Origin: Lytechinus pictus
Taxonomy: Eukaryota
NCBI RefSeq assembly: GCF_037042905.1
Contig: NC_087245.1
Location: 620,001-684,000 of the forward strand
DNA: 64,000 nucleotides
Reading direction: 5' to 3'
Numbering within the stretch: the stretch's first letter is position 1; every line of letters starts with the position of its first letter. The notes under the pieces were generated by a model. The model saw only the letters and a list, made by a program, of their open reading frames with translations, did not search any database and was not told where the DNA came from. The position numbers were made by a program, and so were the translations under genes. This document shows, piece by piece, positions 1 to 60,499 of the stretch.

Positions 1-461
1 AGTCCCCTGTACAGATCGCACTAAAATATTAGGTCTCTGTATATGGTGAGTGGAGCCAACGAGTAGTAGTTCAGCGGAACAACAATGCAACATGATAAAA
101 AAAAGTCATTAACAGAGACCGAAGCTTTTGGTCTAGATACATACTGCCACACGCGATAGACTAACCCAGAGAACTCCCGCCCGCGCAGCGGGCGGGAGCC
201 CAGAAGCTTACCGTGTATTTTACCGTTGTCACCGGACTAGGGTGATTTATGGTCTAAATATTTCTCCAAATGAATTGTGAAAACAGAAAGTATACAATTA
301 CCACGATTATATGGATGAAGGTCTAACGAGTGGCAGATTCCTGACATCTGGGCACAGTCTGGAACCTCAAAAAAACGAAAAGTTCTCTCCTTCTACCCCG
401 TCTCGATCGGCCATTTTTGTTAAAAATCGTAACAAAATGGCCGATCGAGACTGGGTAGAAG

Positions 462-1902
462 CACTCATCCTACGAACGAGGTTATATTATAATTAATAAT
501 ATAACCTCGTTCTCGTGTGTATACACTAGCATGGCCAAAAAAAGCATCGACTATTTTCCTCCTCTTCCCTCACCCAAACATCATGACCTTATCGAACTAG
601 ATCAAGTGTGATACTTGACATAAATTTATATAACAAATATGATCTAATTGCTGAAAATAATATGAAAAATGACTTAAAACTCACCGATTTTTCCACCTCC
701 GGTGACCGTCACTACTCTTGGTTCATTCAATGGTGTTTGACCGTGACAAATCGAAAAAGAAAAAAATATCACGAAGCCATAGAGGTCCATCCACCCGGAT
801 GGATGAAACACTACTCGTGATGCATTCTGGTAAACATGTCTCGATAGCCTCGACAGATTGGCAATTTTGTTTCGTCTAGATAAACATGTTTAAAGAATAA
901 AAAAGTCCAAAAACTCCAAATGGCTATTTTGGGGGGCTTATCTATAATATTTCTAGTACTGTATCCAGAGCATCATTTGTCTGTTTTCCTCTTCCCTTAC
1001 CCTTTCTTTCTTTTTTCTTTTGAGCGTAAATTAATTCTTTTGATTTTTTATTTCTTACTTTTTTCTCAGTCTTTGTTCTTTGTTTTTTTTTTCTTTATTT
1101 TTTAAGGGGAACTCTCCCCTCCTCCTGAAATTTAAGGGGTATTGAATGTGTAACCCCCCCCCCTCCGCCGCCTGTGACAACAATAATTCTTGTGTAAAAA
1201 AAAATAGTGAACAAAATATTGAGTGTCAGGCAGTGGCGTACCCAGGATTTTCCAAAGGGGGGGGGGGGGCAAATTCGTCCGCCAAAAAATTTGAAAAAAA
1301 AAAAAAAAAAAAAAAAGCTGGGTCTTCAAGTTCAAAAGAGGGGGCCACTTGTGGCTCGTCACAGGGATCAGTTGTGACTCGTCAGGGGGGCAGGGGTACG
1401 TCCCTTGCATGAGTTGTGACTCGTCAGGGGGTGCAGTGTGCCCTCCCTGCCCCTTAGGTACGTTAGTGGTGTCAGGTGAGAAAAAGACTACAGTCCCCGG
1501 ATCGCGGAGCTTCCTATTATTATGCTTCACCGGAAACAGGTAGGAGCTTATTGTAACCAGCTCTGTGGTTGCCACTGTTCAGTGGCTAGCTTTCTTTTAT
1601 TCAGCACAAGAGGGCGTGCTGAAATACTTACGTAGGAGACTATGGACCAGACGAGAATAAGGAAAATTTTCCTTATGATTTTACCCGATTTAGAAAGAAA
1701 TCTTCAATTGAAGGACGATATTTGACTCATTGGGCATTGGAATCCTGTTTAAGTAGAACCAAAATCAACACAAGAATTGGTAAGTCAGACTCTTTTACTT
1801 CGCGCGTTCCTACATAGAAATGACAGTGTTAGCGGCACTGGTCTCAGATCAGTCCCACCCCGTACATTTTTCTGTATGGCGAATGGTCGGGGTGAACCAG
1901 TG
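462..1902. mobile_element. CACTC-ended hairpin element (divergent member) inserted in the TAACCC MITE
   Basis: Starts CACTC, ends CAGTG; GGTAGAAG duplicated at 454-461 and 1903-1910; the uninterrupted site is visible in MITE copy 2 (~43930-43950); subterminal hairpin GAACGAGGTTA...TAACCTCGTTC. Confidence 0.65.
1231..1468. mobile_element. hAT-type MITE
   Basis: CAGTGGCGTACC...GGTACGTTAGTG imperfect TIR; 8-bp TSD GTGTCAGG at 1223-1230 and 1469-1476. Confidence 0.8.
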
Positions 1903-2134
1903 GGTAGAAGGAGAGAACTTTTCGTTTTTTTGAGGTTCCAGACTGTGCCCAGATGTCAGGAATCTGCCACTCGTTAGACCTTCATCCATATAATCGTGGT
2001 AATTGTATACTTTCCGTTTTCACAATTCATTTGGAGAAATATTTAGACCATAAATCAGCCTAGTCCGGTGACAATGGTAAAATACACGGTAAGCTTCTGG
2101 GCTCCCGCCCGAGTTCTCTGGGTTAGCGATAGAC

Positions 2135-22236: not shown

Positions 22237-24568
22237 GTGGTCAATAGGCGCCCTTATTTTTGTCTTTCCATATCATCTGAGAAAGATAGTTTTATTGTGT
22301 GTTAGGCGAGTGTATATCGGGTCAAGTAAACAATTGTGGCTATTGGTTTTTAGGATGGCCCCTTTATTGTGGACAACACTCGTCCAGTTTGTCAAATTGG
22401 ATACCAATTTTCTTCACCTAAAAACAAATCTATCCTCACCAAAATTAATAAATAGATAAATAAATGTTCCACTGTGTCCCAGATTATAATCATAATACAC
22501 GGGATTTTGCACTTTGAATGTTTACAGGAGCATTTAATGTTATATCTTATTCAAGACCAACAAACTGTTCACTGGACAAGGAACAATTTTTAAAGGTAAA
22601 GGGTATGGAATGAAACACTAGCGCTCCTTTCCCGGTCCTTTTCTTTGACTGAATGTCGTAGGGTGAGAAAATGGTTATTGTTTGGGTGGAGGGGCGAGAT
22701 AAGTCTATATTGTTATCCTTCTGTAAAATAGTCTTTGTGTGGACTCATGGGTCCATGCACTGGCTCGATCATTATGAAATCTAGATCCACTGCTATACAG
22801 TGAACTGCTATTGTCCCGGGATATTCACTTGAAAAGATAACCTAACACAATGTCGATGGTCTGATCTATTATTATCGCTTTTTGTCACGTGTTCTTGTAA
22901 ATACTGTTGACATCAAAGCAATGACATACAAGATTGGGAGATTACTATAGGCTAGAGCATCGATATTGGAGGCTATTTGAAACGTTGTGTATACCAGTAA
23001 AAAAAATTCGGTACTCGACACGTTACATAACAATTGTCATCTAATCTTCGTGTTTCGATGTTTTTTTTTTCAGGAAAGAAGCGGATAAGCACCCTTTTGG
23101 CCTTTTCTAATGTTTAATTTTAAACCTGCATATTTTTTATCAGGAGGTATCCACCGCAACATAGTCCAGGTAGTATGTGCACTGAAATCATAATCCAAAT
23201 GGACCCGGGGATGTAGGAAAGCCAGCTTTGATACAAGTTGAATAGATCACCAGCTTTGTCAGCCTTACGAGGAGTCGTCTATATAACATAATTATAACCA
23301 TAATGTTTTTCTTGTTTTGATGCATCGAGAATATCGGACTTTAATGTATAGGATCGAAGATTATACATTGGGCATCGAAAGCTATTTCATATCAGGACTG
23401 TGCACTGAATTATTTCGTTTCTTGTTTTCCTCGAGAAGAAACTTAAGAAATGATGATTTAATGCAATGCTGGAAAACACATTTTATATTTATCTCTACAA
23501 AGTCAATTGACCAACAAGATTGCATGACCTCATCCAGATACGGACTTTCTGTTGGCCCTATAGCTGCATCTTCTGAATAAATAAATATCTTCTTGTGGGT
23601 GCATGTGACATCTGGATAGTATATTTTCACACTTTGTGCAGTGCTGTAAACTTTTGTGCAGTGCTATATAGATATATTTGGACACCTTGGACTTCAAGTT
23701 GGTAAGTCACATCTTTCTAAATTAATTAATTAGTAACAAACCTTTTTGGGGATGAGTTCCTTTTGAGACAGCCACCCAAAGCGAACAATATACCGGTATT
23801 GGGGTCAGGGTTATGGTTAGGACAACTGGACAAGGGTTAATAGCTATAGGGCACTTGTTCACTGCAACCACCCTGCCTGTGGGGAATCTACAGGTTGGAC
23901 TATGGCATGCCAATGCTGTACAGAGCACACACTTTAAAAAATGATTAAAATATCACTTTTGTGACCAAAATTACTAATTTCCGTACAGTTGCAATTCATT
24001 TTTCATTAGTAACTTGGGATTATTTTTTGTATTCACTAGAGCGCTCAAAAACTTGAATTTTGGGCATATTTTTGTGAACGCCCTCTATTGGTGGAAAATA
24101 ATATGGCAATAAAATTTTCATTTTTTATCTCTATTTTTAATTAAGAAAAAAATAATTTAAAGAATCAAATTTACTTAAGGGCCAAGTTGTATGACGAATA
24201 GGTGTAATGGAAACTGTCAGTGTAAAAAAATCAAGCATTTGTCCCAAAGAAAAAGAGAAAATAAGCCAAACATTGCCATCCTTATTTTGCCACACATGGA
24301 GATATAACTGAGAACAAGGTTATATCATAACCTTGTTCATTGAATGAGTGCTATAGGGTTGGGGTCCATGGATGTCGCAAAAGGAACTCTTTCCCAAACG
24401 TTTCCACTCTCCATTATCCACTAGCAATGAATCATGTCAATTCTCTGGAAAGATTTCCTACTTATTTTTATTAACACATATGCAGATATTAATTTTACCA
24501 CATGTAGAGCATTTCCATTTATTTGATTCCAGTTAAAAAGAGCCATATAGACAAAATAATGCCTTGTC

Positions 24569-35810: not shown

Positions 35811-36178
35811 TTTTAGATAGGGAAAACAGGAGAAAGAGCGCCACCTCATTGCGCGTTCATCAATTAATTTTTGTAAACAACTGCATCGATATAGCCTCCC
35901 CTTGGATCAGGATCAAGCCAAGGCCAGGGATTCAAGGCCTAAGTTTCCCCTTGCTTAGCTTTTTGGAACCAAATCCATGATTTTCTTAGAACCTTGTGCC
36001 TCATTCATCGATTTTCTGCGTATTACAATGGTAAGCTACGCTAAAATTGCATATGTCAATGGAAATTATACGCCCCAGCTATACGTTTTTTGGACTGTAG
36101 TCCCATATGTTCATTTTTATGATGGTGTTCCGTAGGCCTAGCCCACTCAAGCCAAGGCAAGGGTAGCCAGGCGGCTTC

Positions 36179-38350
36179 CACTCACACAACATGCGAGGTT
36201 AGTATACTAACCTCGCACAACACATGTGATTTCATAGTGCATTTTGACGTTTTCATCCATCACACGAATGTGAGGGACTAAACTACGCTAAACCTTTCAA
36301 TATTTGTCCACTATGTTTATCTTGATCGTATGATCAAGTTTATTGCAAAAAGCAATCATAAATTATTTATTAAAGTGTTTTTATCGCTTACCTCCAAATC
36401 TCAACCAGGATACTTCGCTCGGTCCGTCCTTAGTCATCCTTCGTACTGCGGTGGAAATTACGCAAACAACAATCGAAATGCGAAATTTTCCTATCGAACA
36501 TTCTCGATTCAAGTCGTCGGCGCATAATAGGAAATTGTACCAAAAATCAACATAGTTCTCTATTTATTCAAACAATTTTTTCTGGGGTGTACTTGACCTT
36601 TAAGAGATTTTCCGATGAAAATATTACATGGAACTTGGAAATACAAATCATAATTTGGTTGAACAAAATGTTTTCTGTTAAAGTATAAAACAGAAGAGGA
36701 ACATATATCCTTCACGTATTTTTATATCCAAAATATGTTGCCTTAGTATGGAATAATCACAATGACATAAAATGAAAATGGGTAAAGTACCTTTCTAATG
36801 ATCATTGAGATTTCGCCTGTGGAATCATTGTTTGATAATTTTCAAAGCTTTAAATAGATGAAAATGTTCATTGAGAAAATATACATATATATGTATGAAC
36901 AAAATGATAATGTCCCGATTGTTTCGCATTACGTGTGTTAGATTGCGGGCGTTTGTGTGTGTGTGTAGGAAGCAAGATGTTCGTGTTAATGTTTGCACAA
37001 AAAAGGAGAGGGAAAGGGAAAGGAAAAGGGAGGGGGAAAGGTAGAGGAGAGAGAGGGAAAAGGAGACCATAAAATAGAAAGAAAACAAAGGAAAGGAAGA
37101 GGGGAAGGGAGAGGGAAAGAAAAATGGAAAGAGCGAGAAAAGAGTATATAGGGGAGGGAGAAAGGAAAGAAAAGAAGGGAAAGGAAAAAGCGAGAAAGGG
37201 AATGGAGGGGGCGGGAAAGGAAAGGAGAGACAATAAAAGACAGATCAGGGGAGGGGGAAAAGTAGAGGAGAGAGAGGGAAAAGGAGACCATAAAATAGAA
37301 AGAAAACAAAAGAAAGGAAGAGGGGAAGGGAGAGGGAAAGAAAAATGGAAAGAGCGAGAAAAGAGTAGGGGAGGGAGAAAGGAAAGAAAAGAAGGGAAAG
37401 GAAAAGCGAAAAAGGGGAAGGGAAAGGGAGAGAAGAAAAGAAGGGAGAACGAAAATGGGGAAAGGGAGAAGGAGAGGGGATAATGAAGGGGATAGGAAAA
37501 TGTCAAGTTTGAAGATCTGAATATTAACACTAAAACAAAATTAGACTCCCATGTTTTATTTATAAAAATACCATCTTTTTCATGATTATAAAGGTTCAAC
37601 GTCCCTGTTCTAGGTCTAAACTTCAACATAAATCTACTGGCGCTTCGCGCTTGAATTCTGGAGGTCATTCCTCTTTTAAAAGTATAGGTAATCTGTCGGA
37701 CTTTTCAAATCCCAAATTTAAATCTTAAGCGCAAATGCCCTCGCATTATTTTTCATTTAGATACAGTCCTGTCATCAATATCAAAAACTCTAAGCGCGAG
37801 CTTCGCGCTGGCATCATTTTTGTAAGTGACATTTATGATGTTGTTCATATTTAAAAAATGTCCATTTGTTGAGGTTTAAATGTCCAAAAGTTCAGCGCTC
37901 GCATAATTTGTAAGGTAAATAGACCTACCCTTTTAATTGTTATACAAAGGCGCTTATACAACGTCCAGAATGCAGTTCGGAATATTGAAAATAACTATTG
38001 GTCCCGCTATTTCTGCCCGTGCGACAAGCATTTATCATTTTGAATCATGAGATTCACCTTTAAAATATGATGAAAAAGTATCGTTAAGACTGAATTAAGA
38101 AAAAAAGAAGCTTACGTTTCACGCTCACATTTTAATTGATCCGTTAGCTTGTGATAATAATGGTGACTTCGTTAATATATCTTAGCGGACATGTCCACCT
38201 TTTGGTGCTTCAAGAAAAATAAACACAACACACAAATAATAATAGAAAAACGAACAAGAATAGAATAGATAGTTACCTATCCCACTCATGAATTCTTATT
38301 TAACAGTCCCCAAAACGTATTTTTTTCGTGTTAGCTTATTTCATATACAT

Positions 38351-38383
<33 letters not shown>

Positions 38384-38402
38384 CGGGCGTAAATAAATCA
38401 AG

Positions 38403-38458
<56 letters not shown>

Positions 38459-38512
38459 TTCACACAATATTTAAATAAAAGAGTTGCCAAAGCTGTAGTA
38501 CACGTATAACTT

Positions 38513-38586
<74 letters not shown>

Positions 38587-39751
38587 TCTCCTCATCATGG
38601 TTATAAAAAGTGCTCAGAATGTTTTATTTTCAAGTCCTTGTATCAGAATCTTCAGCTCGGGCAGCTCTATCGCATTTTGATTACTATCCTGTTAATTTAT
38701 TTACTTGAACAAAATATTTAAAATGTCCAGCTTTTAGAACATCTATATCAAAAAAAAGGTATTCACCTTTGATCATAGATGAGGAAGAAGAAAAAAGTGA
38801 AAAAAAATAGGAAACAAACTAACGAATTAATGTGACATAATTTTTCTTCATTTCAAGGCGACTCTTTACATTTCATCATCGCTGATGGCGCTACAATAGA
38901 AAATACCGCTTGACAGCAAAAAAAAAACAGAAAGAGGAAAATAATGCTGAGCGTCTAAAATGCAGCTAGCAGTACAAGCTGCAGAACCGTAAACAAGGTG
39001 TCACGCGCGTAAAACATTCCCCATAGACTTGTGTGTTAAAATGGCACTTTTGAAAAATTCATAAAAAATAAATGTGAAATTAGAGGGTGGAATGTTTACT
39101 ACCAATGGATTGGATATATATCTGACATTCCAAATCTGACCAGGAAAGGGTACCGTAGCCAGCTCATTTTAAAAATAAATCGCCATTTATGAAGATAACT
39201 ATGAATCGATCGAATTCATCAACTGAAACAGTAAAATAGCCCTAATTATTCCGCCAGTCAAAAAAAAGTTCCAAGTCACTTATTTATCTTCCCAATTTGG
39301 GCGAAGTAAGTTCAGTAGTTACCATTTCTAGAATCAGTGTTAGATTTTGAATCACATTCATACATTTTTGTCAATCAGCAATATCAAATTGACAAAAATT
39401 CGAATGGGTTGGGTCGAACGAATATCTTTAGCCCTCCTGATGTAATTAGGCTCGTGGAACCACAAACATCTTGTGAATAATATCGCGCGCCCTCTTTAAG
39501 CAAAAGTTTACAACCACAATTACCCTGCGGTATCTACGTGAAGATCACGAGAAAATGCATTTTTTTTCTTAAAAACACACCAAAGAGAAGACAAGAAACG
39601 ATCCATATGGTTCGGTAAGTGTCATAGCACAATTAGAAACATTATTTTAAAAGGAATGGCTTAGTTATTTTAGTAAAAAGGGTGTGAAAAATTCGCGTGC
39701 ACCATGTGCATATGAATCCTTCGCACGCGAGATGCATTGATCCCATGAGTG
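36179..39751 (+). mobile_element. CACTC hairpin element copy A
   Basis: CACTC...GAGTG ends; 9-bp TSD GGCGGCTTC at 36170-36178 and 39752-39760; subterminal palindrome TGCGAGGTTAGTATACTAACCTCGCA. Confidence 0.85.
38997..39461. mobile_element. 465-bp insertion with 4-bp TSD inside copy A
   Basis: ACAA duplicated; imperfect TIR GGTGTCACGCGC / GCTCGTGGAACC; absent from copy B (empty site ~40160-40172). Confidence 0.8.
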
Positions 39752-39876
39752 GGCGGCTTCTAACCCAGGGAGCCCAGGGGCTTACCGTGTATTTGACCAT
39801 ACTCACAGGACTAGGGTGATTTATGGTCTAAATATTTCTCCAAATGAATTGTGAAAACAGAAAGTATACAATTACT

Positions 39877-42115
39877 CACTCATGGGATCAATGCATCTCG
39901 CGTGCGAAGGATTCATATGCACATGGTGCACGCAAATTTTTCGCACCCTTTTTACTGAAATAACTATGCCATTCCTTTAAAAATAATATTTCTAATTGTG
40001 CTATGACACTTACCGAACTATATGGATCGTTTCTTGTCTTCTCTTTGGTGTGTTTTTAAGAAAAAAAAAGCATTTTCTCGTGATCTTCACGTAGATACCG
40101 CAGGGTAATCGTGGTTGTAAACTTTTGCTTAAAGAGGGCGCGCGATATTATTCACAAGATGTTTGTTTACGGTTCTGCAGCTTGTACTGCTAGCTGCATT
40201 TTAGACGCTCAGCATTATTTTCCTCTTTCTGTTTTTTTTTTTGCTGTCAAGCGGTATTTTCTATTGTAGCGCCATCAGCGATGATGAAATGTAAAGAGTC
40301 GCCTTGAAATGAAGAAAAATTATGTCACATTAATTCGTTAGTTTGTTTCCTATTTTTTTGCACTTTTTTCTTCTTCCTCATCTATGATCAAAGGTGAATA
40401 CCTTTTTTTTTATATCTGTTCTAAAAGCTGGACATTTTAAATATTTTGTTCAAGTAAATAAATCAACAGGATAGTAATCAAAATGCGATAGAGCTGCCCG
40501 AGCTGAAAATTCTGATACAAGGACTTGAAAATAAAACATTCTGAGCACTTTTTATAACCATGATGAGGAGACCTATATATACATATGTATATGAAATAAG
40601 CTAACACGAAAAAGACGTTTTGGGGACTGTTAAATAAGAATTCATGAGTGGGATAGGTAACTATCTATTCTATCCTTGTTCGTTTTCTATTATTATTTGT
40701 GTGTTGTGTTTATTTTTCTTGAAGCACCAAAAGGTGGACATGTCCGCTAAGATATATTAACGAAGTCACCATTATTATCACAATTAAGCTAACGGATCAA
40801 AATGCGAGCGTGAAACGTGAGCTTCTTTTTTTCTTAATTCAGTCTTAACGATACTTTTTCATCATATTTTAAAGGTGAATCTCATGATTCAAAATGATAA
40901 ATGCTTGTCGCACGGGCAGAAATAGCGGGACCAATAGTTATTTTCAATATTCCGAACTGCATTCTGGACGTTGTATAAGCGCCTTTGTATAACAATTAAA
41001 AGGGTAGGCCTATTTACCTTACAAATTATGCGAGCGCTGAACTTTTGGACATTTAAACCTCAACAAATGGACATTTTTAAAATATGAACAACATCATAAA
41101 TGTCACTTACAAAAATGATGCCAGCGCGAAGCTCGCGCTTAGAGTTTTTTATATTGATGACAGGACTGTATCTAAATGAAAAATAATGCGAGGGCATTTG
41201 CGCTTAAGATTTAAATTTGGGATTTGAAAAGTCCGACAGATTACCTATACTTTTAAAAGAGGAATGACCTCCAGAATTCAAGCGCGAAGCGCCAGTAGAT
41301 TTATGTTGAAGTTTAGACCTAGAACAGGGACGTTGAACCTTTATAATCATGAAAAAGATGGTATTTTTATAAATAAAACATGGGAGTCTAATTTTGTTTT
41401 AGTGTTAATATTCAGATCTTCAAACTTGACATTTTCCTATCCCCTTCATCATCCCCTCTCCTTCTCCCTTTCCCCATTTTCGTTCTCCCTTCTTTTCTTC
41501 TCTCCCTTTCCCTTCCCTTTTTCGCTTTTCCTTTCCCTTCTTTTATTTCCTTTCTCCCTCCCCTACTCTTTTCTCGCTCTTTCCATTTTTCTTTCCCTCT
41601 CCCTTCCCCTCTTCCTTTCTTTTGTTTTCTTTCTATTTTATGGTCTCCTTTTCTCTCTCTCTCCTTTACCTTTCCCCCTCCCCTGATCTGTCTTTCATTG
41701 TCTCTCCTTTCCTTTACCGCCCCCTCCATTCCCTTTCTCGCTTTTTCCTTTCCCTTCTTTTCTTTCCTTTCTCCCTCCCCTACGACTTGAATCGAGAATG
41801 TTCGATAGGAAAATTTCGCATTTCGATTGTTGTTTGCGTAATTTCCACCGCAGTATGAGGATGACCAAGGACGGATCGAACGAAGTATCCTGGTTGAGAT
41901 TTGGAGGTAAGCGATAAAAACACCTTAATAAATAATTTATAATTCCTTTTTCAAATAATACGATCAAGATTAACATAGTGGACAAATATTGAAAGGCTTG
42001 GCGTAGTTTAGTCCCTCACATTCGTGTGATGAATGAAAACGTCAAAATGCACTATGAAATCACATGTGTTGTGCGAGGTTAGTATACCGTACTAACCTCG
42101 CATGTTGTGTGAGTG
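39877..42115 (-). mobile_element. CACTC hairpin element copy B (inverted, near-identical to copy A, with deletions)
   Basis: CACTC...GAGTG; 9-bp TSD ACAATTACT at 39868-39876 and 42116-42124. Confidence 0.85.
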
Positions 42116-42123
42116 ACAATTAC

Positions 42124-42810
42124 TAGGGTGTTTGGAGAAAAATATTATTTTTCTTATTTCAAGAAAATATCACATTTTCTTTGTGAATTTGAAGAGAAAT
42201 GACCTTCAGACTGACAGAAATGTAACATTTTTGAAAAAAATCTGATTATTGGCTACTAAAAAGAAGAATGAAATTGGGTCAATTTTCAGCATTTCTCTGC
42301 CATAGACTGTGTAGTTAAGAAATGGACACACACAAATCCAAATTTTTAGCTTCCGAGAGCTGTTAAGTGTTATAAATTTATTATTAATGCCAAAAACTTG
42401 TCCATAAAGAGTCCAATAGGATTTTTTATGCTCTTTCTGATGGTATGATTTTTATAAAGATTTGGAAACCAGATCACAATGAAAAATTGCGACAAAGTGC
42501 AAAATTGTGCAAAACAGAAATTTCATTTTCCCATAGAAAACGCATGGGGAAATGGCAATCTCAACACACACAAAAATAAGGGTTTGCAATTTATCTCTAA
42601 ATCCTCAATTCAAATGATCATATAAACTTGTCCTTACTGTCAAAAGAAGCCCCTGAATTTTCTCTTTCCATACATGCCAAACACAAGTTAATAATCAATT
42701 CAGATCACGTTTTTCTAGTAGCCTGAACTTCCCGAAAAAAATGTGCCACATTTTCCCCTAAATCAGCCTGTCTTATGCTGACACTTTTCAGTGTGGCTTC
42801 AGACACCCTA
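42124..42810. mobile_element. TAGGGTGT-ended non-autonomous element (hAT- or P-like)
   Basis: TAGGGTGT / ACACCCTA; (A)CAATTAC duplicated (7-8 bp); the host MITE sequence resumes afterwards. Confidence 0.75.
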
Positions 42811-42940
42811 CAATTACCACGATTATATTTATATGGATGAAGGTCTAACGAGTGGCAGTTTCCTGACATCTGGGCACAGATTGGAACCTCAAAAAAACGA
42901 AAAGTTCTCTCCTTCTATCCCCGTCTCGATCGGCCATTTT

Positions 42941-43900
42941 TGTCTCACCTGCATAGCAGAGTGAGACTATAGGCGCCGCTTTTCCGACGGCGGCGGCGAC
43001 GGCGGTGGCGGCGTCAACACCAAATCTTAACCTGAGGTTAAGTTTTTGAAATGACAGCATAACTTAGAAAGTATATGGACCTAGTTCATGAAACTTGGCC
43101 ATAAGGTCAATCAAGTATTACTGAACATCCTGCCTGAGTTTCATGTCACATGACCAAGGTCAAAGGTCATTTAGGGTCAATGAACTTAGACCATGTTGGG
43201 GGAATCAACATCAAAATCTTAACCTAAGGTTAAGTTTTTGAAATGTCATCATAACTTAGAAAATATATGGACCTAGTTCATGAAACTTATACATAAGGTT
43301 AATCAAGTATCACTGAACATCCTGCATGAGTTTCACATCACATGACCAAGGTCAAAGGTCATTTAGGGTCAATGAACTTTGGCCGAATTGGGGGTATCTG
43401 TTGAATTACCATCATAACTTTGAAAGTTTATGGATCTGATTCATGAAACTTGGACATAATAGTAATCAAGTATTACTGAACATCCTGTGCAAGTTTCAGG
43501 TCACATGATCAAGGTCAAAGGTCATTTAGGGTCAATGAACTTTGGCCAAATTGGGGTATTTGTTGAATTACAGCCATAAATTTGAAAGTGTGTTGGTCTA
43601 GTTCATAAAACTTGGACATAATAGTAATCAAGTATCACTGAACATCCTGTGCGAGTTTCAGGTCACATGATCAAGGTCAAAGGTCATGTAAGGTCAAAGA
43701 ACTTTGGCCACGTTGGGGGTATTTGTTGAATTGCCATCATATCTCTATAAGTGTATTGGTCTAGTTCATAAAACGTGGAAATAAGAGTAACCAAGTATCA
43801 CTGAACATCTTGTGCGAGTTATAGTAGTTTTCAAAATCAGCACTGCTGCTATATTGAATCGCGTGATGCAGGTGAGACGGCCAGAGGCATTCCACTTGTT
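42941..43900 (+). mobile_element. Helentron-associated (HINE/DINE-like) element with internal tandem repeats
   Basis: 5' GTCTCACCTGCAT with subterminal inverted ATGCAGGTGAGAC at 43866-43878; (GGC)n-like tract; about five 160-190-bp tandem units; inserted in a T-run with no clear TSD. Confidence 0.75.
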
Positions 43901-44113
43901 GTTAAAAACCGTAACAAAGTGGCCGATCGAGACTGGGGTAGAAGGAGAGAACTTTTCGTTTTTTGAGGTTCCAGTCTGTGCCCAGATCACTCACACTAGT
44001 AGTAGTACGAGGTTAGTAGTATTAGTATATATATACTAACCTCGTACACCGAACCGTGTTTGTCCCTTGATTTCGAAGTAGTCGGCAAACATCGCTTCAT
44101 TGCTGAAGTAATA

Positions 44114-45814
44114 CACTACTCAAAAAAAGTTAAGGACCACTTTTTAATGTGTGTATACAATTTTCAAACCGGGTGTTGTATTTCTAGAAATACCCGAATA
44201 TGGCTGTCTTGAATCTCCTCAAACACCCTGTAACAATTTCACACATGGGTGGTTTCAGTTGTTGCATGATGTCTCTCGCATTATTGCATATCCTGAAAAG
44301 TGGGCCCATTGTGAAGTGGTACAAATGTGGATTCAAATGCATTTTCTGTCTTTAGTCTCTACAATCAACAAATTGCTGACAACAGCAATGCCAAGATACA
44401 GCTGTCCAGGATGCCATCAAACACAATGAAATCAATTTCACACATGCAGTTCTTTCATGTCTCTTGCATCATTGCAATGTGCCCGTACAAAAGTGGCTTC
44501 CAAAGCATTTTCCGTCTTTAGTCTGTACAATAAACAACTTTCCTACAACAGCAATGCCAAGACACCACCTAAGTGAAACAGATGTAGCCAGAGCCCTAGG
44601 GATGCTGGAAGCTGGCCTCAGTCAGCGAAGAGTAGCCAGAATGATGGGCGTGTCACACAGTGTCATTAGCAGAGCAAATCAAAGACACCGAGAGACAGGG
44701 CTATACTCCGAGAGACCCCGCAGTGGCCGACCAGTTTCGACAACCCCTAGAGATGATCGCTACTTGACGAATCTCAGCCTCCGCAACCGCTTTCACAGTG
44801 CACGCCGCCTCAACAATGACTTCGCTGCAGCAACTGGAGTGATTGTTTCCACTCAAACAATCCGTAACCGACTTCACAGAGCCAATATGCATGCCAGACG
44901 GCCAGCTCAGTGTGTCCCACTCACCCCTGCTCACAGAAGAATTCGTCTCAACTGGGCCCGGGAGCATGTCAGATGGACCAGACAGCAATGGCGTAGAGTT
45001 CTGTTCACAGATGAGAGCAGATTTTCCCTTGACCACAATGATGGACGTTCGAGAGTCTGGAGGCGACCAGGAGAGAGATTTGCAGACCCCTGTATTGCAG
45101 AACATGACCGTTATGGGGGAGGCAGCGTCATGGTGTGGGGAGGCATCACCTACGCCAACCGTACTCGTCTCTACGTGGTCCCAGGGGGAGCAATGACAGG
45201 AGTGAGGTACAGGGATGAGGTCCTTGAACCTAAAGTGGTGCCATTTGCAGAAAATGTGGGACAAAACATCATTTTCATGGATGACAATGCCGGTGCCCAC
45301 CGAGCTAGGGTGGTGACCGAGTTCCTTGAGGGCCAGGGGATTGAGCGTATGGAGTGGCCAGCGAGGTCCCCGGACTTAAACCCGATAGAGCACGTCTGGG
45401 ACATGATGGGGAGGAGTCTCGAGCAGCTCGAAGCCCATCCACTTGGACTGCAGCAGCTGGGTGTGGCTCTGGAGGCTGCATGGGATGCACTGGACGTCAG
45501 AGACATCAATCGCCTCATCAGCTCCATGAGACAGCGCTGTGAAGCCGTTATTGCTGCAGGAGGTGGTGACACTCAGACATTCGTTTTTACCACTTCATGT
45601 CGGTAGCTGATACCCCTCGGGGCCCACTTTTCAGGATGTGCAGTGATGCGAGAGACATTGTGCAACAACTGAAACCACCCATGCGTGAAATTGATTACAG
45701 CGTGTTTAAGGACATTTAGGACAGTTGTACTGAGGTATTTCCAGAAATAAAACACCTTGTATAAAATCTTTATGTACGTTTTAAAAAGTGGTCCTTAACT
45801 TTTTTTGAGTAGTG
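44114..45814 (+). mobile_element. Full-length Tc1-family DNA transposon
   Basis: TA TSD; perfect 34-bp outer TIR extending imperfectly to ~195 bp; intact transposase ORF. Confidence 0.95.
44554..45606 (+). CDS. Tc1 DD34E transposase (350 aa from the first ATG)
   Basis: N-terminal HTH region, RSGRP motif, catalytic FTDESRF / MDDNA / SPDLNPIE with 34 residues between the second D and E; the ORF-track start at 44464 is TTG. Confidence 0.95.
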   Translation: MPRHHLSETDVARALGMLEAGLSQRRVARMMGVSHSVISRANQRHRETGLYSERPRSGRPVSTTPRDDRYLTNLSLRNRFHSARRLNNDFAAATGVIVSTQTIRNRLHRANMHARRPAQCVPLTPAHRRIRLNWAREHVRWTRQQWRRVLFTDESRFSLDHNDGRSRVWRRPGERFADPCIAEHDRYGGGSVMVWGGITYANRTRLYVVPGGAMTGVRYRDEVLEPKVVPFAENVGQNIIFMDDNAGAHRARVVTEFLEGQGIERMEWPARSPDLNPIEHVWDMMGRSLEQLEAHPLGLQQLGVALEAAWDALDVRDINRLISSMRQRCEAVIAAGGGDTQTFVFTTSCR

Positions 45815-47993
45815 TATTTGCCGAAACTCCTTCTCGCTACTCACCGGGGCTCTTTCCGGTAAGTAGCAATACATTAAAAAATTTTAAATGTAATTTGAAT
45901 ATAATATTAATAATCGGTCAAAAAGAGCAAATTTCGCTTACCTCGGCCTGGAAAGTAACTTCGCTTGTCTCTTCTACGGAAATACAAGGAGGCCCGTTGG
46001 TGGCGCTAATAAATTTCACAACCTTGATTCAGCTCCTCGGTAATTTTATAACTGTGTCTAAATTCTTTGAATGCGCAATTCTTATGATTAATTTACTAAT
46101 TATGGGCACCAATAAATGAAATACCTTCAAACATGTCAAAAACATAATTCAATATTATTATTGGCGATGACAACACTTTTCTGCAATTAATTTAAAACGA
46201 TGACTAATAAAGAAAAATTGAAAAAAATATACGTGCCTGGAACAAAACCAGCAGTACAGGCTTTAACGAACATCAATAATACGGTATATACCAAAGTCTT
46301 TACAATGAAAAGATTGGACACTTCACGGACTTTGCGTAATGACCTGCGTCAATTTGCGTGTAAAATAGTGTAGGTGCCTAGTCTTTCCCTTGTCGTGTCT
46401 TTGATATGAATATAAATCGCGCGCCCTCTTTAGACGAAAATTGATATCGGCGCTGACCAAATTTTATCTTCACTAAAGATCAAGAAAATATACATATATT
46501 TTAGAAGAAACTTCAAGGAGAAGTCACGGAAGGATCTAAATGATTGGGTAAGTGTCATAGCAAAATGTGAAATCCCTAATTATATGTGATGTTTTATGTG
46601 GGCGAAAGCCCAGTAGTATATGGATGTGTCGTGTGTGTCGCGTTATTATGAATGATATTCCTTTGCACTCGAGATGATATGAGCCCATGGGTGGCCCAGA
46701 TGTCAGGAAACTGCCACTCCTTAGACCTTCATCCATGTAATCGTGGTAATTGTATACTTTCTGTTTTCACAATTCATTTGGAGAAATATTTAGACCATAA
46801 ATCACCCTAGTCCCGTCAGTATGGTCAAATACGCGGTAAGCCCCTGGGCTCCCGCCCGCTGCGCGGGCGGGAGCTCCCTGGGTTAGGAGGCTTCTAGAGA
46901 GTAAAAATCATTTACTAACGTAAGGTTACTCTCATACGAAGCCAGGGAGTCCTCCCTATTCATCTGCGTGTACCGCAAAAAATCTGAAACTTTTGCCCCC
47001 GAGATTTCTACTTTCCTTCTAAAAAGTCTAGTTCTAAATCATGTACATGGGATAAAACTTCATTTCCGACATTTCTATGCTCTCACGCTCGCGTCCGTAA
47101 CGTTGGGGAAGTACAATAAGAAACAAGATGGCGGCTTAAACATCGGGCAAGTCTCTTCCGTCTTTTCACAATATTTTTTCATTTTTTTAAATGAATTCTT
47201 GTTTAAAAATAACAACGAGAGCGTAGAAATGTCGGAAATTAAGTTTTATTCCATGTACATGATTTAGGTCTAGATCTTTTAGAAGGAAAGTAGAAATCTC
47301 GGGTTGAAAGTTTCAGGTTTTGGCTTCCTTTGTGTGGGTCTATAAGATAGAAGCCCTGGCTTCGTATGAGAGTAACCTTACGTTAGTAAATGATTTTTAC
47401 TCTCTAGAAGCTGCCTGGCTACTCAAGGGTTCGATACATGCCGCCGTGCTAGTATTGAGGACTCCATGATGATGTCTTTATTAAATACTTTGACATATAC
47501 TTCTTCATCATTGGAGTCTTGAACCGCCCTATATGTATAAGAGACACATGTAAACAAAGATGGATTTCCCTAGGAAATCCATCTTTTAACAGTGAGTAGG
47601 CGCTGGTCAAAAAATTGGGAATGTCCCAGTTTACAGAATACAGGGACTGTCTCAGTTTTCAAAGATTTCTCCACACAAGAAATCTAGGAAAGTTCATTCA
47701 CCTGTCAAGTGCCGACATCAATTGAGTGCGCTAGTCAATGTAAACATATCAGGTTTCATATAACAAGATTATTGGAAGACAGCAAGTCATGAAAAATAGA
47801 CGGTGAACTGGGGGAATTGAGGTCACTGAATCTATTTTAAGCACTCTCAATCCCCGTAATTACTGTCTATGTCCCGCAGGGGTAAGTGAAAAAAAACTGT
47901 CCCCATAAACAAGGATAATCTCAATTTATCAAGACATGATTTGTCCTGGTTTAAGAGGATATGAGGATATGTTTAATATAAAAATCACGTATA

Positions 47994-49716: not shown

Positions 49717-52700
49717 CACCCATGGGTTCATTTCATCTCGCGTGCGAAGGAATATCAAATGCACATGATGCACGCGACACATGCAAATCTTTACAAAGAT
49801 TACATTAAATTTAAATTTCACATTGTGTGATAGCACTTACCAGGCATATGGATCCTTTGGTGACTTCTCTTTGCTGTTTTAAAAAAAAAGGATTTTTTTT
49901 TATCTTCACGTACATGTAGATGCCCTTCGATCAGCGACAAAATCAATTTTGGCCTAAAGAGGGCGTGCGATATTATTTATGAACCGGTTTGTTTACGCAT
50001 GAAATAACGGGTCTGAAGCTTGTACTGCTAGCTGCATTCTAGGCGCTCAGCATTATTTTCTTGCTCGTTCAGTCCACTTTCATCATCTTGTCAAAAGATG
50101 GCGTACATGTACTTCACCTAGGTATGTGACAAAAAAAAATAAAAATCATGGAATTACGTTGTAACCTAGTCCATTTGAAAGGGCTGAAAAAAACATTTAA
50201 AGGACAAGTCCACCCCAACAAAAAGTTGATTTGAATAATAAGAGAAAAATCCAACAAGCATAACACTGAAAATTTCATCAAAATCGGATGTAAAATAAGA
50301 AAGTTATGATATTTTAAACTTTCGCTTAATTTTATAAAACAGTTATATGCACATCCTGGCTGTTATGCAAATGAGGAAACTATGACGTCATCCACTCACT
50401 ATTTCTTTTGTATTTTATTATATGAAATATTCTAATTTTCTCCTCATTGTCAAGTAATACAACGATTAATTCCTCCCTGAACATGTGGAATTAGCATTGT
50501 TTAATACTATATGGTTCAGTCAAGTTGGTCCTTATTGTCAAATCTATAAAAAATGAAATATTGTATAATAATAATTCAAACAAAAAACAAAAGAAATAGT
50601 GAGTGATGGACATCATCGACTGACTCACCTAGTAATGTGCATATCACTGTTTTGTGAAAAATAAGAGAAACTTTAAAATGTCATAACTTTCTTATTTTAC
50701 ATCCGATTTTGATGAAATTTTCAGCACTATGCTATGTTTGATTTTTCTCTATTTATTCAAGTAAGCAATTTCCTGGGGTAGACTTGACCTTTAAAATGGT
50801 ATATTTATTATAAACCATTACACTAGGCCAAATATTAAGAGAGTTATGATTTTTTTAATATTAAAAATCTGATTGAATTATTGCCATTGTCTTACCATTG
50901 CGACCATTGAAAATGTGTGACCGACCGTGACCAAAAAATGTTTTTTTTACAAAATTATACAAATTATTAATTTTACTCTATAAAACTGAGTAAAAACAGG
51001 TGATGAGAAAGGATATCAATATTTGTCTTAATTCATCAATTTTTTAAATATTTAATTAATAATTATCAGTTAGTAAATTGATATGTTAATTGTTCATAAA
51101 CTCATTACCAAACACATACAAACTTATATAATTTCCTTATTGTTTGGAATTTTTTGACAGGAACTTCTGCAACAACACATCTTCTAAATAAAACTTTCAG
51201 AATGATAAAACATTGAATACTTACAGAAAGATCTCAGTATTTGATAAATGTATTGATTAGTAATTATCAATTAGCATATTAATTAGTTATCTATTCAAAT
51301 CTCACTGCTGCAAAAAAAAAATCCTGATTTGGTATATTTTGATGGAAGTTTCTGCTAAGGAAACATGGAATATAATGGATATGTGATCTATGAATATAAG
51401 GAATGGAAGTATTTAAAAAACATTCAACAATTTCATGTACATCATTTACAAACATGTACATGTATGACAACTATTATTGGTTGGCATCCATTGAATTTGT
51501 ACCAAATGGGAAAAGCCGTAGATGGCGTCAACCAGTGTTCGCCAGTTTCTGGTCGCTTTAACATGTGTTTTATTGAACAAAATTTTGATGTCAGTTTCTA
51601 CTCTTATATATACATGTATCAGTAACAAAAATAAAATCTTTTATAATTTATAATTAAACTGTGTATGAGCACATGATTCAATGCAGGACCTAGAATTATA
51701 TTATTTTTTATTATTATTATTTTTTCATTATTTTTTTCTTGGGTGACCTCAGGCTAAGTTTGCCTAAATAAATGATAAATGACATCCCTAATATCTTACA
51801 ACAAAACACTGAAAACAAGCTAAAATTGTGTAATGTGTATATTTATATTCATCAAAGGATGTAATAACTAATGATCTGAATATAAACAAGTAGACTCTAG
51901 ATCTCAAAAGCAAATAATATTTCAATCAATGCAATGCACAAACTGCTAGCATAACCCCTCTGAGCCGGTGCACCCATAACAGGCCTCCCGGCGACACTGC
52001 ACTCATCATGATGGTCGCATAGCACGCAACACTCGCGGCAGTTTGCTATTTCTGGCAATCAATTTTTAGGATGTAAAAAATAAATGATCTGATTTTTAGA
52101 TTCGATTTATATTCACCACACACCAAGAAAAATATATGAACAAGCTGTTAAAATAAGGTTTAAAAACTGTCAAAAGTTACCTTCAGGGCTGGTCACGATG
52201 TATAAAGACAACATTAGACTTTCACATGAGCCAAATCCAACTTCCATGCTTCCGATCTTCAAAATTTGACATCGAGGCGAAGGGGATTTTTTTCAGCTAC
52301 GTCATCAGTGAAAATAAGCCAAATTGGCGAGAAACCACCAAATCTACACCCATTTGAAGCCACCTCTTACAGAGCAACCCAAGCTCGTTTTGAAACCGCT
52401 GCCGGTGCCGCGGTATTGAGATCACATCGCGCGATAGTCACATACCTACTTCACCTATAAGTATATACATGAGATGCACCCTGTTGATTTTTTGTACAAT
52501 TTCCTATTATGCGCCGACGACTTGAATCGAGACTGTTCGATAGGAAAAATTCGCTTCTCGATTGTTGTTTACGTAATTTCCAGTATCAAGGATCTTCGGA
52601 CGGACCGGACGGAGTATCTAAGCGTTAAAAATCATTTATAAATAATTTCGTCTATATTTTTTAAATTAAGTTATTTAATAAGATTTAAATTTATGTAGTG

Positions 52701-52832
52701 AATAAATGTATAAGGTTTTGGCGTGTTTTATTCCCTCACATTCGTGTGATGAATGAAAACGTCAAAATCCATAGTCAAATCACATGCGTTGTGCGAGGTT
52801 AGTATAGCTAACCTTGCATGCATGTATGAGTG
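49717..52832 (-). mobile_element. CACTC hairpin element copy D (older)
   Basis: CACCCATGGG...TGAGTG; both ends homologous to copy B; decayed 9-bp TSD GCACGACGT / GCACAACAC (two CpG>CpA changes). Confidence 0.75.
50201..50790. mobile_element. Kolobok-like palindromic MITE
   Basis: TTAA TSD on both sides, AGG...CCT termini, long inverted arms. Confidence 0.85.
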
Positions 52833-54898: not shown

Positions 54899-56778
54899 CA
54901 CTGGCGTAAATCCGTGTTGATGGATGGGGGGGATGACTGAAATATTTTGGCATTTTTTTTGCAATCATGTTTTTAGATATGCAAGAAATTGCCATTGATA
55001 TGTCCACAGTGGCGTACCGTGGGTCACGGCATGGGGGGGGGGCACCAGCCAAAATTTTGAATCACTGAGTGAGTGCGCTAGTGAGCGCGCTCAGTTGCCA
55101 GTTATACTGACCTAATAGAGACATTTTAAGGACAATGTCATTAAACTGATATGTATCTCACTGATCAAATAATGCGAGCGCGAAGCGCGAGCTGAAATTT
55201 TTTTTATATTCACACCTAAAAAGGGACATTATAATCAAATTTGTGTAATCATGATAGGTACCTGTCTCGCTGAACAATGCGAGCGCGAAGCGCGAGCTGA
55301 AAATTTAGATAATTCAGACCTGAAGTGGGTATTCTAAGGTTTTTTGTAAGAATTAACTAGGACCATACGTATTTCATCAACCGAATGATGCGAGTGCGAA
55401 GCGCGAGCTGAAAATTTTTGATATTCAGATCAGAAGGGACATTTTAAGGACTGATTTTAGGAATTTATGAAAAGCAGACATGTCTCACCAATCCACTAAT
55501 GCGAACGTAATCACGGACAGGAAATGTTTCATATATACGAAGACCTTAACATGGGGCAATCACTTTTTGAGTCGTGAAAAGAAGCATATATATGTAACTA
55601 CATAAAACAATGATAACTCAAGTGCTAGGAAATATATTTGGTTTATATTGACTTGAAAACGGGATGTTTTAGTACAAAAGGATTATATATCACGTTAAAC
55701 AGACAATGCGAGCACCAGGAACAATGAAGATGTAGGCCCTGGGCAAATTTTCATAAAGTTATGATAAAATTAATATGTTTTTTATGTAATGTAACATAAT
55801 ATAATTATGATATAACATTATAATGAATAATATTTCCTTCTTTCCCACTACGTTTCTCTTCCTTTCTCCCTCTTTTCTCCTTTTCCCCTTTCCCCGTTTT
55901 TTAATGCGAACGTAATCACGGACAGGAAATGTTTCATATATACGAAGACCTTAACATGGGGCAATCACTTTTTGAGTCGTGAAAAGAAGCATATGTAACT
56001 ACATAAAACAATGATAACTCAAGTGCTAGGAAATATATTTGGTTTATATTGACTTGAAAACGGGATGTTTTAGTACAAAAGGATTATATATCACGTTAAA
56101 CAGACAATGCGAGCACCAGGAACAATGAAGATGTAGGCCCTGGGCAAATTTTCATAAAGTTATGATAAAATTAATATGTTTCTTATGTAATGTAACATAA
56201 TATAATTATGATATAACATTATAATGAATAATATTTTCTTCTTTCCCACTACGTTTCTCTTCCTTTCTCCCTCTTTTCTCCTTTTCCCCTTTCCCCGTTT
56301 TTTTTTTTGGTCAGCCGATGGGGGGGATGTGCCCCTCATGCCCCCGTAGTTACGCCACTGTATGTCCATATGGCAAATACCCCTCCAATATTATTATCTT
56401 TTTTATGATGGTTTAATGGTTTTATTAGAGATTACATTTAAAAAAATTTGACATTCCATCTTAATCCCTTCCCAAAGACCCCAACATTGATGAATTGGAA
56501 GAAACGGGGGTTTCTCTTCAATGTTATAATAAGGACATAAGTATTTCGTTTGGAAATGGTGAACTGGCTCTTTATTTGCATTTTATGATTCAATAATATT
56601 GTTTTATTTGTTAAGCGGTATTTTAGGAAGAATTTTCACCAATAAAACAATTATCTCTTGTGATTTTTTTTCATTTCTTTCGTAAAAAGTGGGGGGGATG
56701 TTTGTACAGGCCATCCCACCTTCCTCGAAAAGTGGGGGGGATATATCCCCCCCATCCCCCCCGGGATTTACGCCAGTG
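54899..56778. mobile_element. hAT-type element hosting 55007-56360
   Basis: CACTGGCGTAAATCC / GGATTTACGCCAGTG; 8-bp TSD ATAATAAT. Confidence 0.85.
55007..56360 (-). mobile_element. hAT-type element (inverted copy of the 16716-17900 family) with a ~405-bp internal tandem duplication
   Basis: CAGTGGCGTA / TACGCCACTG; 8-bp TSD TATGTCCA; ~55498-55902 repeated at ~55903-56305. Confidence 0.88.
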
Positions 56779-57843: not shown

Positions 57844-59376
57844 CTGATCTACTAAAACTGTCTTTTTTCTAATTTACAAATAGTTCAGTTTCAGTTTAGA
57901 AGAGCTGGAGTTTATTTTTGACAGCTTAAAATAGAAATTAGCAAAGAGAATGATTAAACAAATTATGAAGAAAATTGAAATCTAACAGATATGAACAAGC
58001 ACTGCTTGCACTGACCAGAATAGAAATCAATAATAAAACTGCATGGCTGCTTGAGATTTGGGGGAGGGGTAGCGTAGGGGAGGAGACCCTTATTCATTTT
58101 GCCTTTTATGAGGGGAGGAGGGGGTTGGAGAAGGAAAAGGTTTATAAAGTCAATATAAAACTGATGAATATAAATGGGTGTATAGTCAGAAAAATTCATG
58201 TGTACAGTCAATGCAATATTAAATTACTATAGGAATACATGTAGCTGCTTTGACCCCCCCCCCCCCCAAGTAAGTAAAACATACATTTCTTATCTTTTGA
58301 TAATTTAAAATGTGAAGTATTATAAAAACTTTTATGATTAAAAAAAAAAGCCTTTACATATAAGTACCAAGAAAATTATGCCTTTGAAAATCATATAGGA
58401 CTGGTAAATGTTTATGTGTAATGTCAGTTACCGACAAGTATGTTCAAATGAAAGAAAAGGAATTAAGAAAAATAATTTTTTTTTCATTGAAATGTTCCTA
58501 GAAACTCATGTATACTTCCACATCAAGTTCATGAGGATGATAAGGTCTAAGGTCATCTATATCATATTATTTATTGATGGCGAAATCATGTGAGACTCGT
58601 TCATGAATCACCTTGTTTTTTTTTGTTTTTTTTTTGACGAAATTCGTCAGTGACGTTATTTCAGTGTGGTCAAATTTTATGACTCTTGTCAAATAAAGTA
58701 AAAACAATTACACGTTTATGAACTTTAGCTGAAAACACAATCTGTATTAATTTTGTACATGAAAAAATGTTTTTAGCAATTGTTGGTCTGACCTTACCTG
58801 GGCATCATGAATTTGGTCTTAAAAGTTGGGCGAGATTTGAAAGTAAAAGGTCAGTGAGCAGCACAGTCAAAAACATTTTGTGTGTGCAGATGTTTGGGGC
58901 CATCATGCCCCCACCTTCCCGGAGTATTAAGAGTTAAATAAAAATGCAATTTTTTAATTAGCCAGAGGAAGATGACAGCTTGTTCCTTGGAGAATACTTA
59001 TCATCTTAAGATGCATTACTGTAAGTTCCAAGTCTTCTTAAAATTACCTTATGAAGACTTACTGTAAGACATAAAATTCTGGAATAACTTGTGGTCAGTA
59101 AATTCCAATAACTTATTTTGTGGTGCCTTATATTGATATAAGATTGTTTGATGACCTCACATCCTACATGTATATTAAAAGAGCAGACACCTAATTTATC
59201 ATAACTGTATGCTAGATAAAACAACCTTGCCCTCTCATTAACCAAGAGTAACATGATTTTTTTTTTTCAGATGACACGAAAACCTGAACACTTTGTTCCT
59301 CCCTCAGCGGATTAGCTATTTGGAAAGCCTACATTCCTTCCGTGTTATGTCATACTTCAAACTGGATTTTACAATC

Positions 59377-60070
59377 ATGGAATCTGACCCTGACCTCAGT
59401 TCAACTAATGAACTCAGTGATGAAGAAGAAGCTGATACCCTTCTGGATCGCATCCCACCTCCACCTGTTGACAGGACACACAAGGCCCGACAAGGAAGCA
59501 GAGTCATCAAACCAAAGGAGCGGAAGCATATCCTGATAGCTCTAGTAACAGTACTTGTCTTCACCACACAGTTTGCCTGTAGAGGATACCTGACAGGGGT
59601 TCTCTCCACCATCCAGCATAGTTTAGATATCTCACAAGCCGAAGCATGGCTTATTGATATAGCCTTTGATTTTGGCATCGTCATTGGGATTGCCTTGTTG
59701 TTATCCTGCAGAAGATGTGTCAACCGACCCCGTTGTGTCGCTGGTGGGGCGTTTCTGATAGGAGTTGGTCTCTTTGCTTCGTCTGTGCCTTACTTTATGC
59801 TTCATCCATCTCCTGCTTGGCTGAAGTCACCTGGTATCTCTAAAGTACCTCAGTATGAACTATGTGATCTTGGTAAGGTGCCAGACAGTAATCCTGTTGA
59901 TAATGATGATGATGATGATGAAACTCTGGATTACATTAAGAGTTTGAGTGGTAAGGAGTTGGCTATCATATGTGGGATGTTTGTTGCTGGTTTAGGAGCA
60001 GCTCCTCAGTGGGTCTTTGGTTTTCCCTATCTTCAAGATCGTACTCAGAAGCATCCTATCGTGATTGTTA
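59377..60070 (+). CDS. SLCO/OATP-like transporter, first coding exon (alternative ATG at 59347; acceptor at 59270)
   Basis: GYLTGVLSTIQHSLDIS..., RPRCVAGGAFLIGVG...VPYF and GLGAAPQWVFGFPYLQD follow the OATP TM1-TM4 pattern; GTAAGT donor, phase 1; in-frame stop at 59272. Confidence 0.8.
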
Positions 60071-60499
60071 GTAAGTATGACCAGACATTCTATTATTTAT
60101 ACAATGTTTACAGGGGCCTGATGCATAAAACTGTACCCCTCAGGTCAGCACATTTCTGCCACTGACTTGAACACAGGAAAAACTTATGAAATAAAAATAA
60201 CCTGACTCATACCTGAGTCTCTTTGAGTGAAAAGACAGCTCAGGGATAACTGATCTATGTTTCAACAAAACTTTTTGTCAATATAATATTATCTTTCAAT
60301 ATAGGTCTTTTAAATTGATACAGTCTTTAACTTCATTTTAACCCAGCAATTTGATTTTTTTTTCATTCAGTAAAATGCTTACAGGTAAATATTTCTTGAT
60401 GCTTTCAGATACCTAATTCACTCAGATAGTTATTAACTGATTATTATTAATTGATGAGATTCATTGTCTTGTACTTTTATCTTGTTTTTCTACTTGTAG

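Follow-up and report, generated by a model that had tools for sequence, protein, structure and literature searches.

In a 64,000-nucleotide stretch of Lytechinus pictus DNA (NCBI RefSeq assembly GCF_037042905.1, contig NC_087245.1, positions 620,001 to 684,000; hereafter the window), two pairs of DNA transposons with unrelated ends lie back to back upon shared target site duplications (TSDs) within one nest. In each pair a member of a family with CACT-type ends is stacked with an element of another family: copy A with a miniature inverted-repeat transposable element (MITE) that has TAACCC ends, and copy B with a TAGGGTG-ended element, E. Both triples consist of separate cut-and-paste insertions with host-derived TSDs, and E arrived before B. 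We favour sequential double insertion, with a probability of about 0.52: hot sites within a MITE that serves as a landing pad would have been used a second time. Element anatomy and all counts were taken from this window alone, which is repeat-rich animal DNA of 37% GC.

Two elements on one 9-bp site

The first triple reads, in order, GGCGGCTTC (36170), the CACT-ended copy A, GGCGGCTTC (39752), the TAACCC MITE, and GGAGGCTTC (46886), and it splits the left end of a further MITE, the host. Its components are as follows.

36161..47424: host MITE, ends G[G/A]GTAGCCAGG, flanked by AA (2 bp), some 550 bp long without the inserts, which interrupt its left end
36170..36178, plus strand: first TSD copy, GGCGGCTTC, equal to host MITE positions 10-18
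36179..39751, plus strand: copy A, non-coding CACT-family element, CACTC...GAGTG, unlike ends with a 6-bp terminal inverted repeat (TIR), 9-bp TSD without mismatch, hairpin 14 nt in from the left end
38997..39461: insertion within A, 465 bp, GG...CC ends, 4-bp TSD ACAA, missing in B and present at high copy in public runs
39752..39760, plus strand: second TSD copy, GGCGGCTTC, common to A and the TAACCC MITE
39761..46885: TAACCC MITE copy 2, 508 bp without its nested elements, containing B, E, G and C
46886..46894, plus strand: third TSD copy, GGAGGCTTC
47407..47415, minus strand: single empty counterpart of the site in the other arm of the host MITE, GGCAGCTTC

The initial annotation had reported a 9-mer present three times around A and the MITE, and only once in the other arm of the host; both observations were confirmed at the positions above. 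The TSD of A is exact at 9 bp and no other length from 5 to 12 fits, and that of the MITE is 9 bp with one mismatch, in its right-hand copy. Exact GGCGGCTTC has three matches in the window against 0.08 expected, a number reached in 0 of 100 shuffles; the third match (35463) lies at no element end that was found. Since GGCGGCTTC constitutes bases 10-18 of the host MITE, whose arms are 83% identical (blastn), and is single in the other arm, the 9-mer pre-dates both insertions. The sister copies have different flanks, ACAATTACT beside B and GCGATAGAC beside MITE copy 1, and therefore neither family carries GGCGGCTTC as its own sequence. On these two grounds a fixed unit of A plus MITE, named beforehand as the case that would speak against a triplicated TSD, fails in the window, and triple 1 consists of two separate insertions rather than a composite.

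An alternative reading of the MITE is CTAACCC...GGGTTAG, flanked by a 7-bp TSD. The 9-bp reading is favoured because an older TAACCC relative ends in GGGTTA followed by A. The claim that two elements cut at a base-identical position is supported as independent use of the same 9 bases. Divergence amounts to 42 of 2215 aligned bases (1.9%) between A and B, and to 8 of 219 (3.7%) between the arms of the TAACCC MITE; B must be younger than the MITE because it lies inside it. Taken together, these values and the nesting suggest that the MITE probably came first and A second.

A second triple of mixed families

A second triple of the TSD-element-TSD-element-TSD kind, missed in the initial annotation, lies in the same nest, in the left arm of the TAACCC MITE: ACAATTACT, copy B, ACAATTACT, element E, ACAATTACC.

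39868..39876, plus strand: first TSD copy, ACAATTACT; the empty MITE arm reads ACAATTACC
39877..42115, minus strand: copy B, inverted sister of A, without A 36521-37148, exact 9-bp TSD
42116..42124, plus strand: second TSD copy, ACAATTACT, its final T being the first base of E in the 7-bp reading
42124..42810: element E, TAGGGTG...CACCCTA with exact 7-bp TSD CAATTAC, or AGGGTG...CACCCT with a 9-bp TSD and one mismatch
42810..42818, plus strand: third copy, ACAATTACC

For E, the 9-bp reading requires one C-to-T change and the 7-bp reading none. The latter is favoured because it needs no mutation, and E most likely makes a 7-bp TSD; we estimate that 7 is favoured over 9 by some tens to a hundredfold. 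An 8-bp hAT reading was rejected for E and for element H (described below), each of which would require a 1-bp deletion. The outer TSD of B carries a T that is supplied only by the end of E, or by mutation after the arrival of E. Whichever reading of E is taken, the duplicated T did not exist until E arrived, which places E first and B second. If E is read with 7 bp, the 9-bp target of B would be the TSD of E plus one base on each side, that is, the same axis cut with a different stagger. In both triples the TSD derives from the pre-insertion locus, as seen in GGCAGCTTC of the other host arm and in ACAATTACC of the empty MITE arms.

Copy B, 98% like A, lies inverted 125 bp from it and lacks 628 bp of A (36521-37148) that are partly shared by copy D; B may be a local inverted hop from A. 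A compound transposon spanning A to B was rejected on the difference of the outer flanks. The sequence ACAATTACC also occurs inside A at 39516 and resembles the B/E target, but a shared 9-11-mer is, by our arithmetic, expected by chance at these lengths.

The CACT-type family

Five CACT-type copies were found in the window; A, B, C and D have related ends and F is distant.

462..1902, plus strand: copy F, a distant CACT-type element lying within MITE copy 1, exact 8-bp TSD GGTAGAAG, not stacked
43988..46693, plus strand: copy C, diverged, exact 8-bp TSD GCCCAGAT, not stacked
44114..45814, plus strand: Tc1/mariner element inside C, TA TSD, open reading frame (ORF) 44380-45606 with DDE_3 and HTH_Tnp_Tc3_2
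49717..52832, minus strand: copy D, decayed TSD (6 of 9), not stacked, outside any TAACCC MITE

The family has CA...TG ends and TIRs of only 4-6 bp. A 9-bp stagger holds for A and B, but the family does not always make it, since the exact TSDs of C and F are 8 bp long; TSD length thus varies between 8 and 9 bp within the family. A hairpin lies 13-20 nt inside one end in all five copies (462-530, 36179-36240, 42050-42115, 43988-44065, 52770-52832). Its stem, AGGTTA...TAACCT (GAGGTTA-type), is constant, while the loop is different in each copy, having expanded through short duplications. At 24317-24335 a short AGGTTA...TAACCT palindrome stands alone, with no CACT ends.

The Tc1/mariner copy in C is a passenger, not the mover of the stack; its frame is open over both the helix-turn-helix and DDE_3 regions, and it is possibly recent. 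No other transposase family was detected in the remaining 18 of 19 scanned ORFs of the window, which were chosen by hand (14 of the 19 among the 70 listed or overlapping that region).

Frequency of stacking and clustering

Most of the 613 rows from a scan of the window for TIRs and TSDs were TA runs or chance pairs; elements were taken from among the matches listed. Thirteen elements with a TSD of at least 6 bp were hand-picked for counting; short-TSD elements and candidates without clear ends were left out. Of the 13, nine are unstacked and four form the two pairs A/MITE and B/E. Within the CACT family two of five copies are stacked, and C, D and F touch no element end.

The CACT copies cluster on TAACCC MITEs in this window. 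Such MITEs account for 2.8-6% of the background, and four of the five copies lie within or abut one; when A and B are counted as a single event, P is about 8e-5 to 8e-4. With A taken as the selected case, a second in-register hit among the four other copies has a chance of 0.16-0.5% against the whole window. Given landing on the pad and no hot spots, the chance of a second in-register hit among B, C and F rises to at most 2.6% (exact axis) or 7.8% (within one base), and it would exceed these values if some arm positions were hot.

Proposed re-use of hot sites and its alternatives

The reading that we prefer, sequential double insertion, would work as follows. The TAACCC MITE would serve as a landing pad by virtue of GC- and CpG-rich, accessible DNA; its left arm has 53 CpG/kb and the outer 60 bp 100, compared with 28 in the window. 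A few positions of the MITE would be favoured through shape or accessibility, not through a readable sequence. A first insertion would duplicate such a hot site, and its own first bases would restore most of the flank, from host TAG to TAA after the MITE and from CACG to TAGG after E. Because the first insertion leaves the site nearly whole, the site would stay good, and a later CACT-family transpososome, with a Mutator-like 8/9-bp stagger and an enzyme encoded outside the window, could cut on the same axis. The stacked partners would need no common transposase.

Several points weigh against this reading. Where any of the eight non-CACT long-TSD elements is stacked, its partner is a CACT copy, which fits family-specific behaviour better. 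Without hot spots a coincidence of 2.6-7.8% is still needed, and the hot sites are postulated rather than seen, since the five CACT targets have no common flank motif. A motif at a fixed offset in the five target flanks was not found, and their best 6-column score (20) was equalled or exceeded in 226 of the 300 random sets. The TSDs of triple 1 fit either order, each of which needs one substitution in copy 3. All counts come from a single window that was picked for its nest, so that the stacking and clustering statistics are post hoc. A CTCF-like motif 5 bases from the cut was not found: its core scored 2-8 of 12 over nine sites, with no common side.

The initial annotation had offered insertion directed to a transposon end as one cause. 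In the form considered here the CACT transposase would be drawn to the boundary of a resident transposon of any family, by a bound protein, a nick or a bend, and would cut within 1 nt of it. In its favour, two of five CACT copies abut another element at gaps of 9 and 8 bp, both on the left TSD of the resident. Both stacks in the window include a CACT copy, the residents differ in their ends and probably in stagger, and the second hit among four copies is rare against the whole window. The six letters at the junction of A, CTAACC, moreover also form one arm of the CACT subterminal hairpin, but the end of E has no such match. Three of five copies (C, D and F) touch no element end; A and B, near sisters 125 bp apart, may not be independent; and landing on a pad with hot sites explains the same stacks at a few percent, the null raising the chance to 2.6-7.8%. 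We regard end-seeking as rather unlikely. Were it true, a eukaryotic DNA transposon would target other transposons independently of sequence, and the growth of dense nests that spare host DNA would be explained. The most novel form of the idea is put forward as doubtful: the CACT family would home on TAACCC MITEs, use resident ends as a safe haven and, reading no target sequence, place the centre of its 8/9-bp cut on the TSD of a resident, even on the 7-bp TSD of another superfamily. Also suggested at the outset was that a single 9-bp-stagger transposase, or two related ones, moved A and the MITE; as considered here, these would have one target preference, and B and E would be a further case if E is 9 bp, and otherwise a separate coincidence. 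TSDs of 9 bp in A, B and both MITE copies agree with it, as do the alternative 9-bp readings of E and H (with AGG ends) and the strong hairpin that both families have 10-15 nt in from one end (z -2.6 to -8.6); for A and the MITE the idea may hold. As a general cause it is weakened because the partner of the CACT copy in triple 2 is best read as 7 bp (the 9-bp reading of E costs a C-to-T change that the 7-bp reading spares), and because A and the MITE, with the unrelated termini CACTC and TAACCC, share no terminal sequence. The TSDs of the families share nothing beyond a purine as first base, and we consider this explanation improbable.

The sequence of triple 1, where the TSDs give no order, would equally result from the joining of two alleles, each with one element at the site, by an exchange within the 9-bp TSD. 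Such an exchange cannot yield triple 2, in which B duplicated a base that existed only after E, and it still needs a hot site in addition to a crossover within 9 bp; it is very unlikely. The possibility that A and the MITE form one composite with an internal 9-mer, or that the inverted A/B pair is an assembly artefact, draws on the lack of a readable copy of the entire locus from elsewhere. It is opposed by the place of the 9-mer in the host arm, by the differing flanks of B and MITE copy 1, and by the differences between A and B, which each have a TSD of their own and are set apart by a deletion of 628 bp and an insertion of 465 bp. In addition, one contig of public run X1 tracks the end of A to 39752 and then continues with 29 other letters that do not align there. 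This last alternative is largely refuted and very improbable.

Other elements of the window

Further elements are listed here.

162..2125: TAACCC MITE copy 1, exact 9-bp TSD GCGATAGAC, inside an older relative
42940..43900: element G, at the centre of the MITE, with a 163-bp tandem core and ends assigned by eye
50119..52448: element H, TAGG ends, exact 7-bp TSD CTTCACC with TA on both sides, 9 bp also readable

Both TAACCC MITE copies have a 9-bp TSD (7 bp is also readable) and arms of about 250 bp, which act as long TIRs. Copy 1 sits in an arm of the older TAACCC relative (2135-2313), and six insertions (MITE copy 1, B/E, C, F and G) lie in three TAACCC MITE copies of about 500 bp. One arm in each MITE (39761-39780; 2095-2125) has lost part of a GC-rich subterminal hairpin by deletion between short repeats. 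Element H lies inside copy D, in a TA-N7-TA site recreated on both sides by its own ends, and contains a further MITE of 590 bp (50202-50789) with TTTAAA flanks.

A second nest (13896-21236) has long inverted arms (15486-20617) with TAGTAGAC ends and a 3-bp TAA flank. It contains an 8-bp-TSD CAGTGGCG element at 16716-17900 and no stacking on a shared TSD. Inside another 8-bp-TSD CAGTGGCG element (55007-56360) is a 401-bp tandem duplication (55497-56303) of 98% identity. An OATP-family coding exon (59275-60165; Pfam PF03137, E 7e-18) lies about 12 kb from the nest.

Comparison with known systems

Exact family-end patterns gave 0 loci in viral contigs, metagenome contigs and prokaryote genomes, as expected for an animal repeat. 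Public runs gave 15 rows, none with half of the words; four were compared over 39000-39915, where the high-copy insert in A dominates. The junction at 39752-39760 was bridged by none of the 32 pieces listed (besides 7889 further pieces and 866 loose ends), which has no bearing on intermediate alleles, and the read-depth dip there is uninformative.

Galileo elements make a TSD of 7 bp. The TSDs of E and H, exact at 7 bp with 9 bp also readable, would in the 7-bp reading match those of 7-bp hAT or P/Galileo types; hATs with a 7-bp TSD are described in PMC12730594. The same source gives 2-5 bp for EnSpm/Transib (CMCT), a range outside which the 8-9-bp TSDs of the CACT family fall. It further describes KDZ elements, with an 8-bp TSD in Zisupton and Dileera, and a 7-bp TSD, CA...TG ends and no TIR in Kyakuja, whose families there are fungal. 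The CACT family resembles KDZ in its CA...TG ends, near lack of TIRs and long TSD. Its TSDs are 8 bp in two of five copies, 9 bp in two and decayed in one, against the 7 or 8 given for KDZ (PMC12730594). Muta1 of Aedes aegypti, a Mutator-like element, makes 8- or 9-bp TSDs within one family with no sequence preference, as reported in PMC5225508, and for Mu a weak target consensus is described (PMC2774946). In the survey of PMC6446971 the TIRs of Mutator-like elements (MULEs) are 14-500 bp or absent. The CACT family is Mutator-like in having TSDs of 8-9 bp that vary within the family, inside the 8-11 bp of Mutator/MULE elements, and unlike a typical MULE in its 4-6-bp TIRs and CA...TG ends. With TSDs like those of Muta1 and ends more like those of KDZ, we file it under neither. 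The TAACCC MITE, with a 9-bp TSD and arms of about 250 bp as long TIRs, resembles Mutator/MULE elements.

MITEs of rice and maize have TA or TAA as targets. Site sharing is far easier at such short targets than at the 7-9-bp TSDs found here. Their multimers are described as adjacent or nested through independent insertions, some families being the target of many others (PMC5172404). The closest precedent is the P element, whose tandem dimers are explained by double insertion at strong sites with one TSD between the copies, and the same account extends to hobo, jockey and R1 (McGurk and Barbash, 10.1101/158386). Both triples share with P dimers the arrangement of their TSD copies, one in the middle and one on either outside. 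P dimers, as described there, join members of one family; the partners here are CACTC with TAACCC and CACTC with TAGGGTG, with staggers of probably 9 and 7 bp in triple 2. P termini also restore the target, as described with the singed-weak allele, and the same paper notes that a TIR is at times difficult to distinguish from its target (Linheiro and Bergman, PMC2577343). Likewise, the first bases of the residents here restore the TSD flank (TAG to TAA; TA-N7-TA after E), with a similar 7/9 ambiguity, while unlike for P no palindromic target motif is demonstrable for the CACT family from five sites. A narrow literature search found no description of a long TSD shared across families. Shared-TSD double insertion is known within one family, and what appears new here is that it crosses family lines. 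If sequential double insertion is the right reading, the P-element rule extends across families, and annotators are warned that 7- or 9-bp TSD calls and apparent 'composite' elements are ambiguous in such nests.

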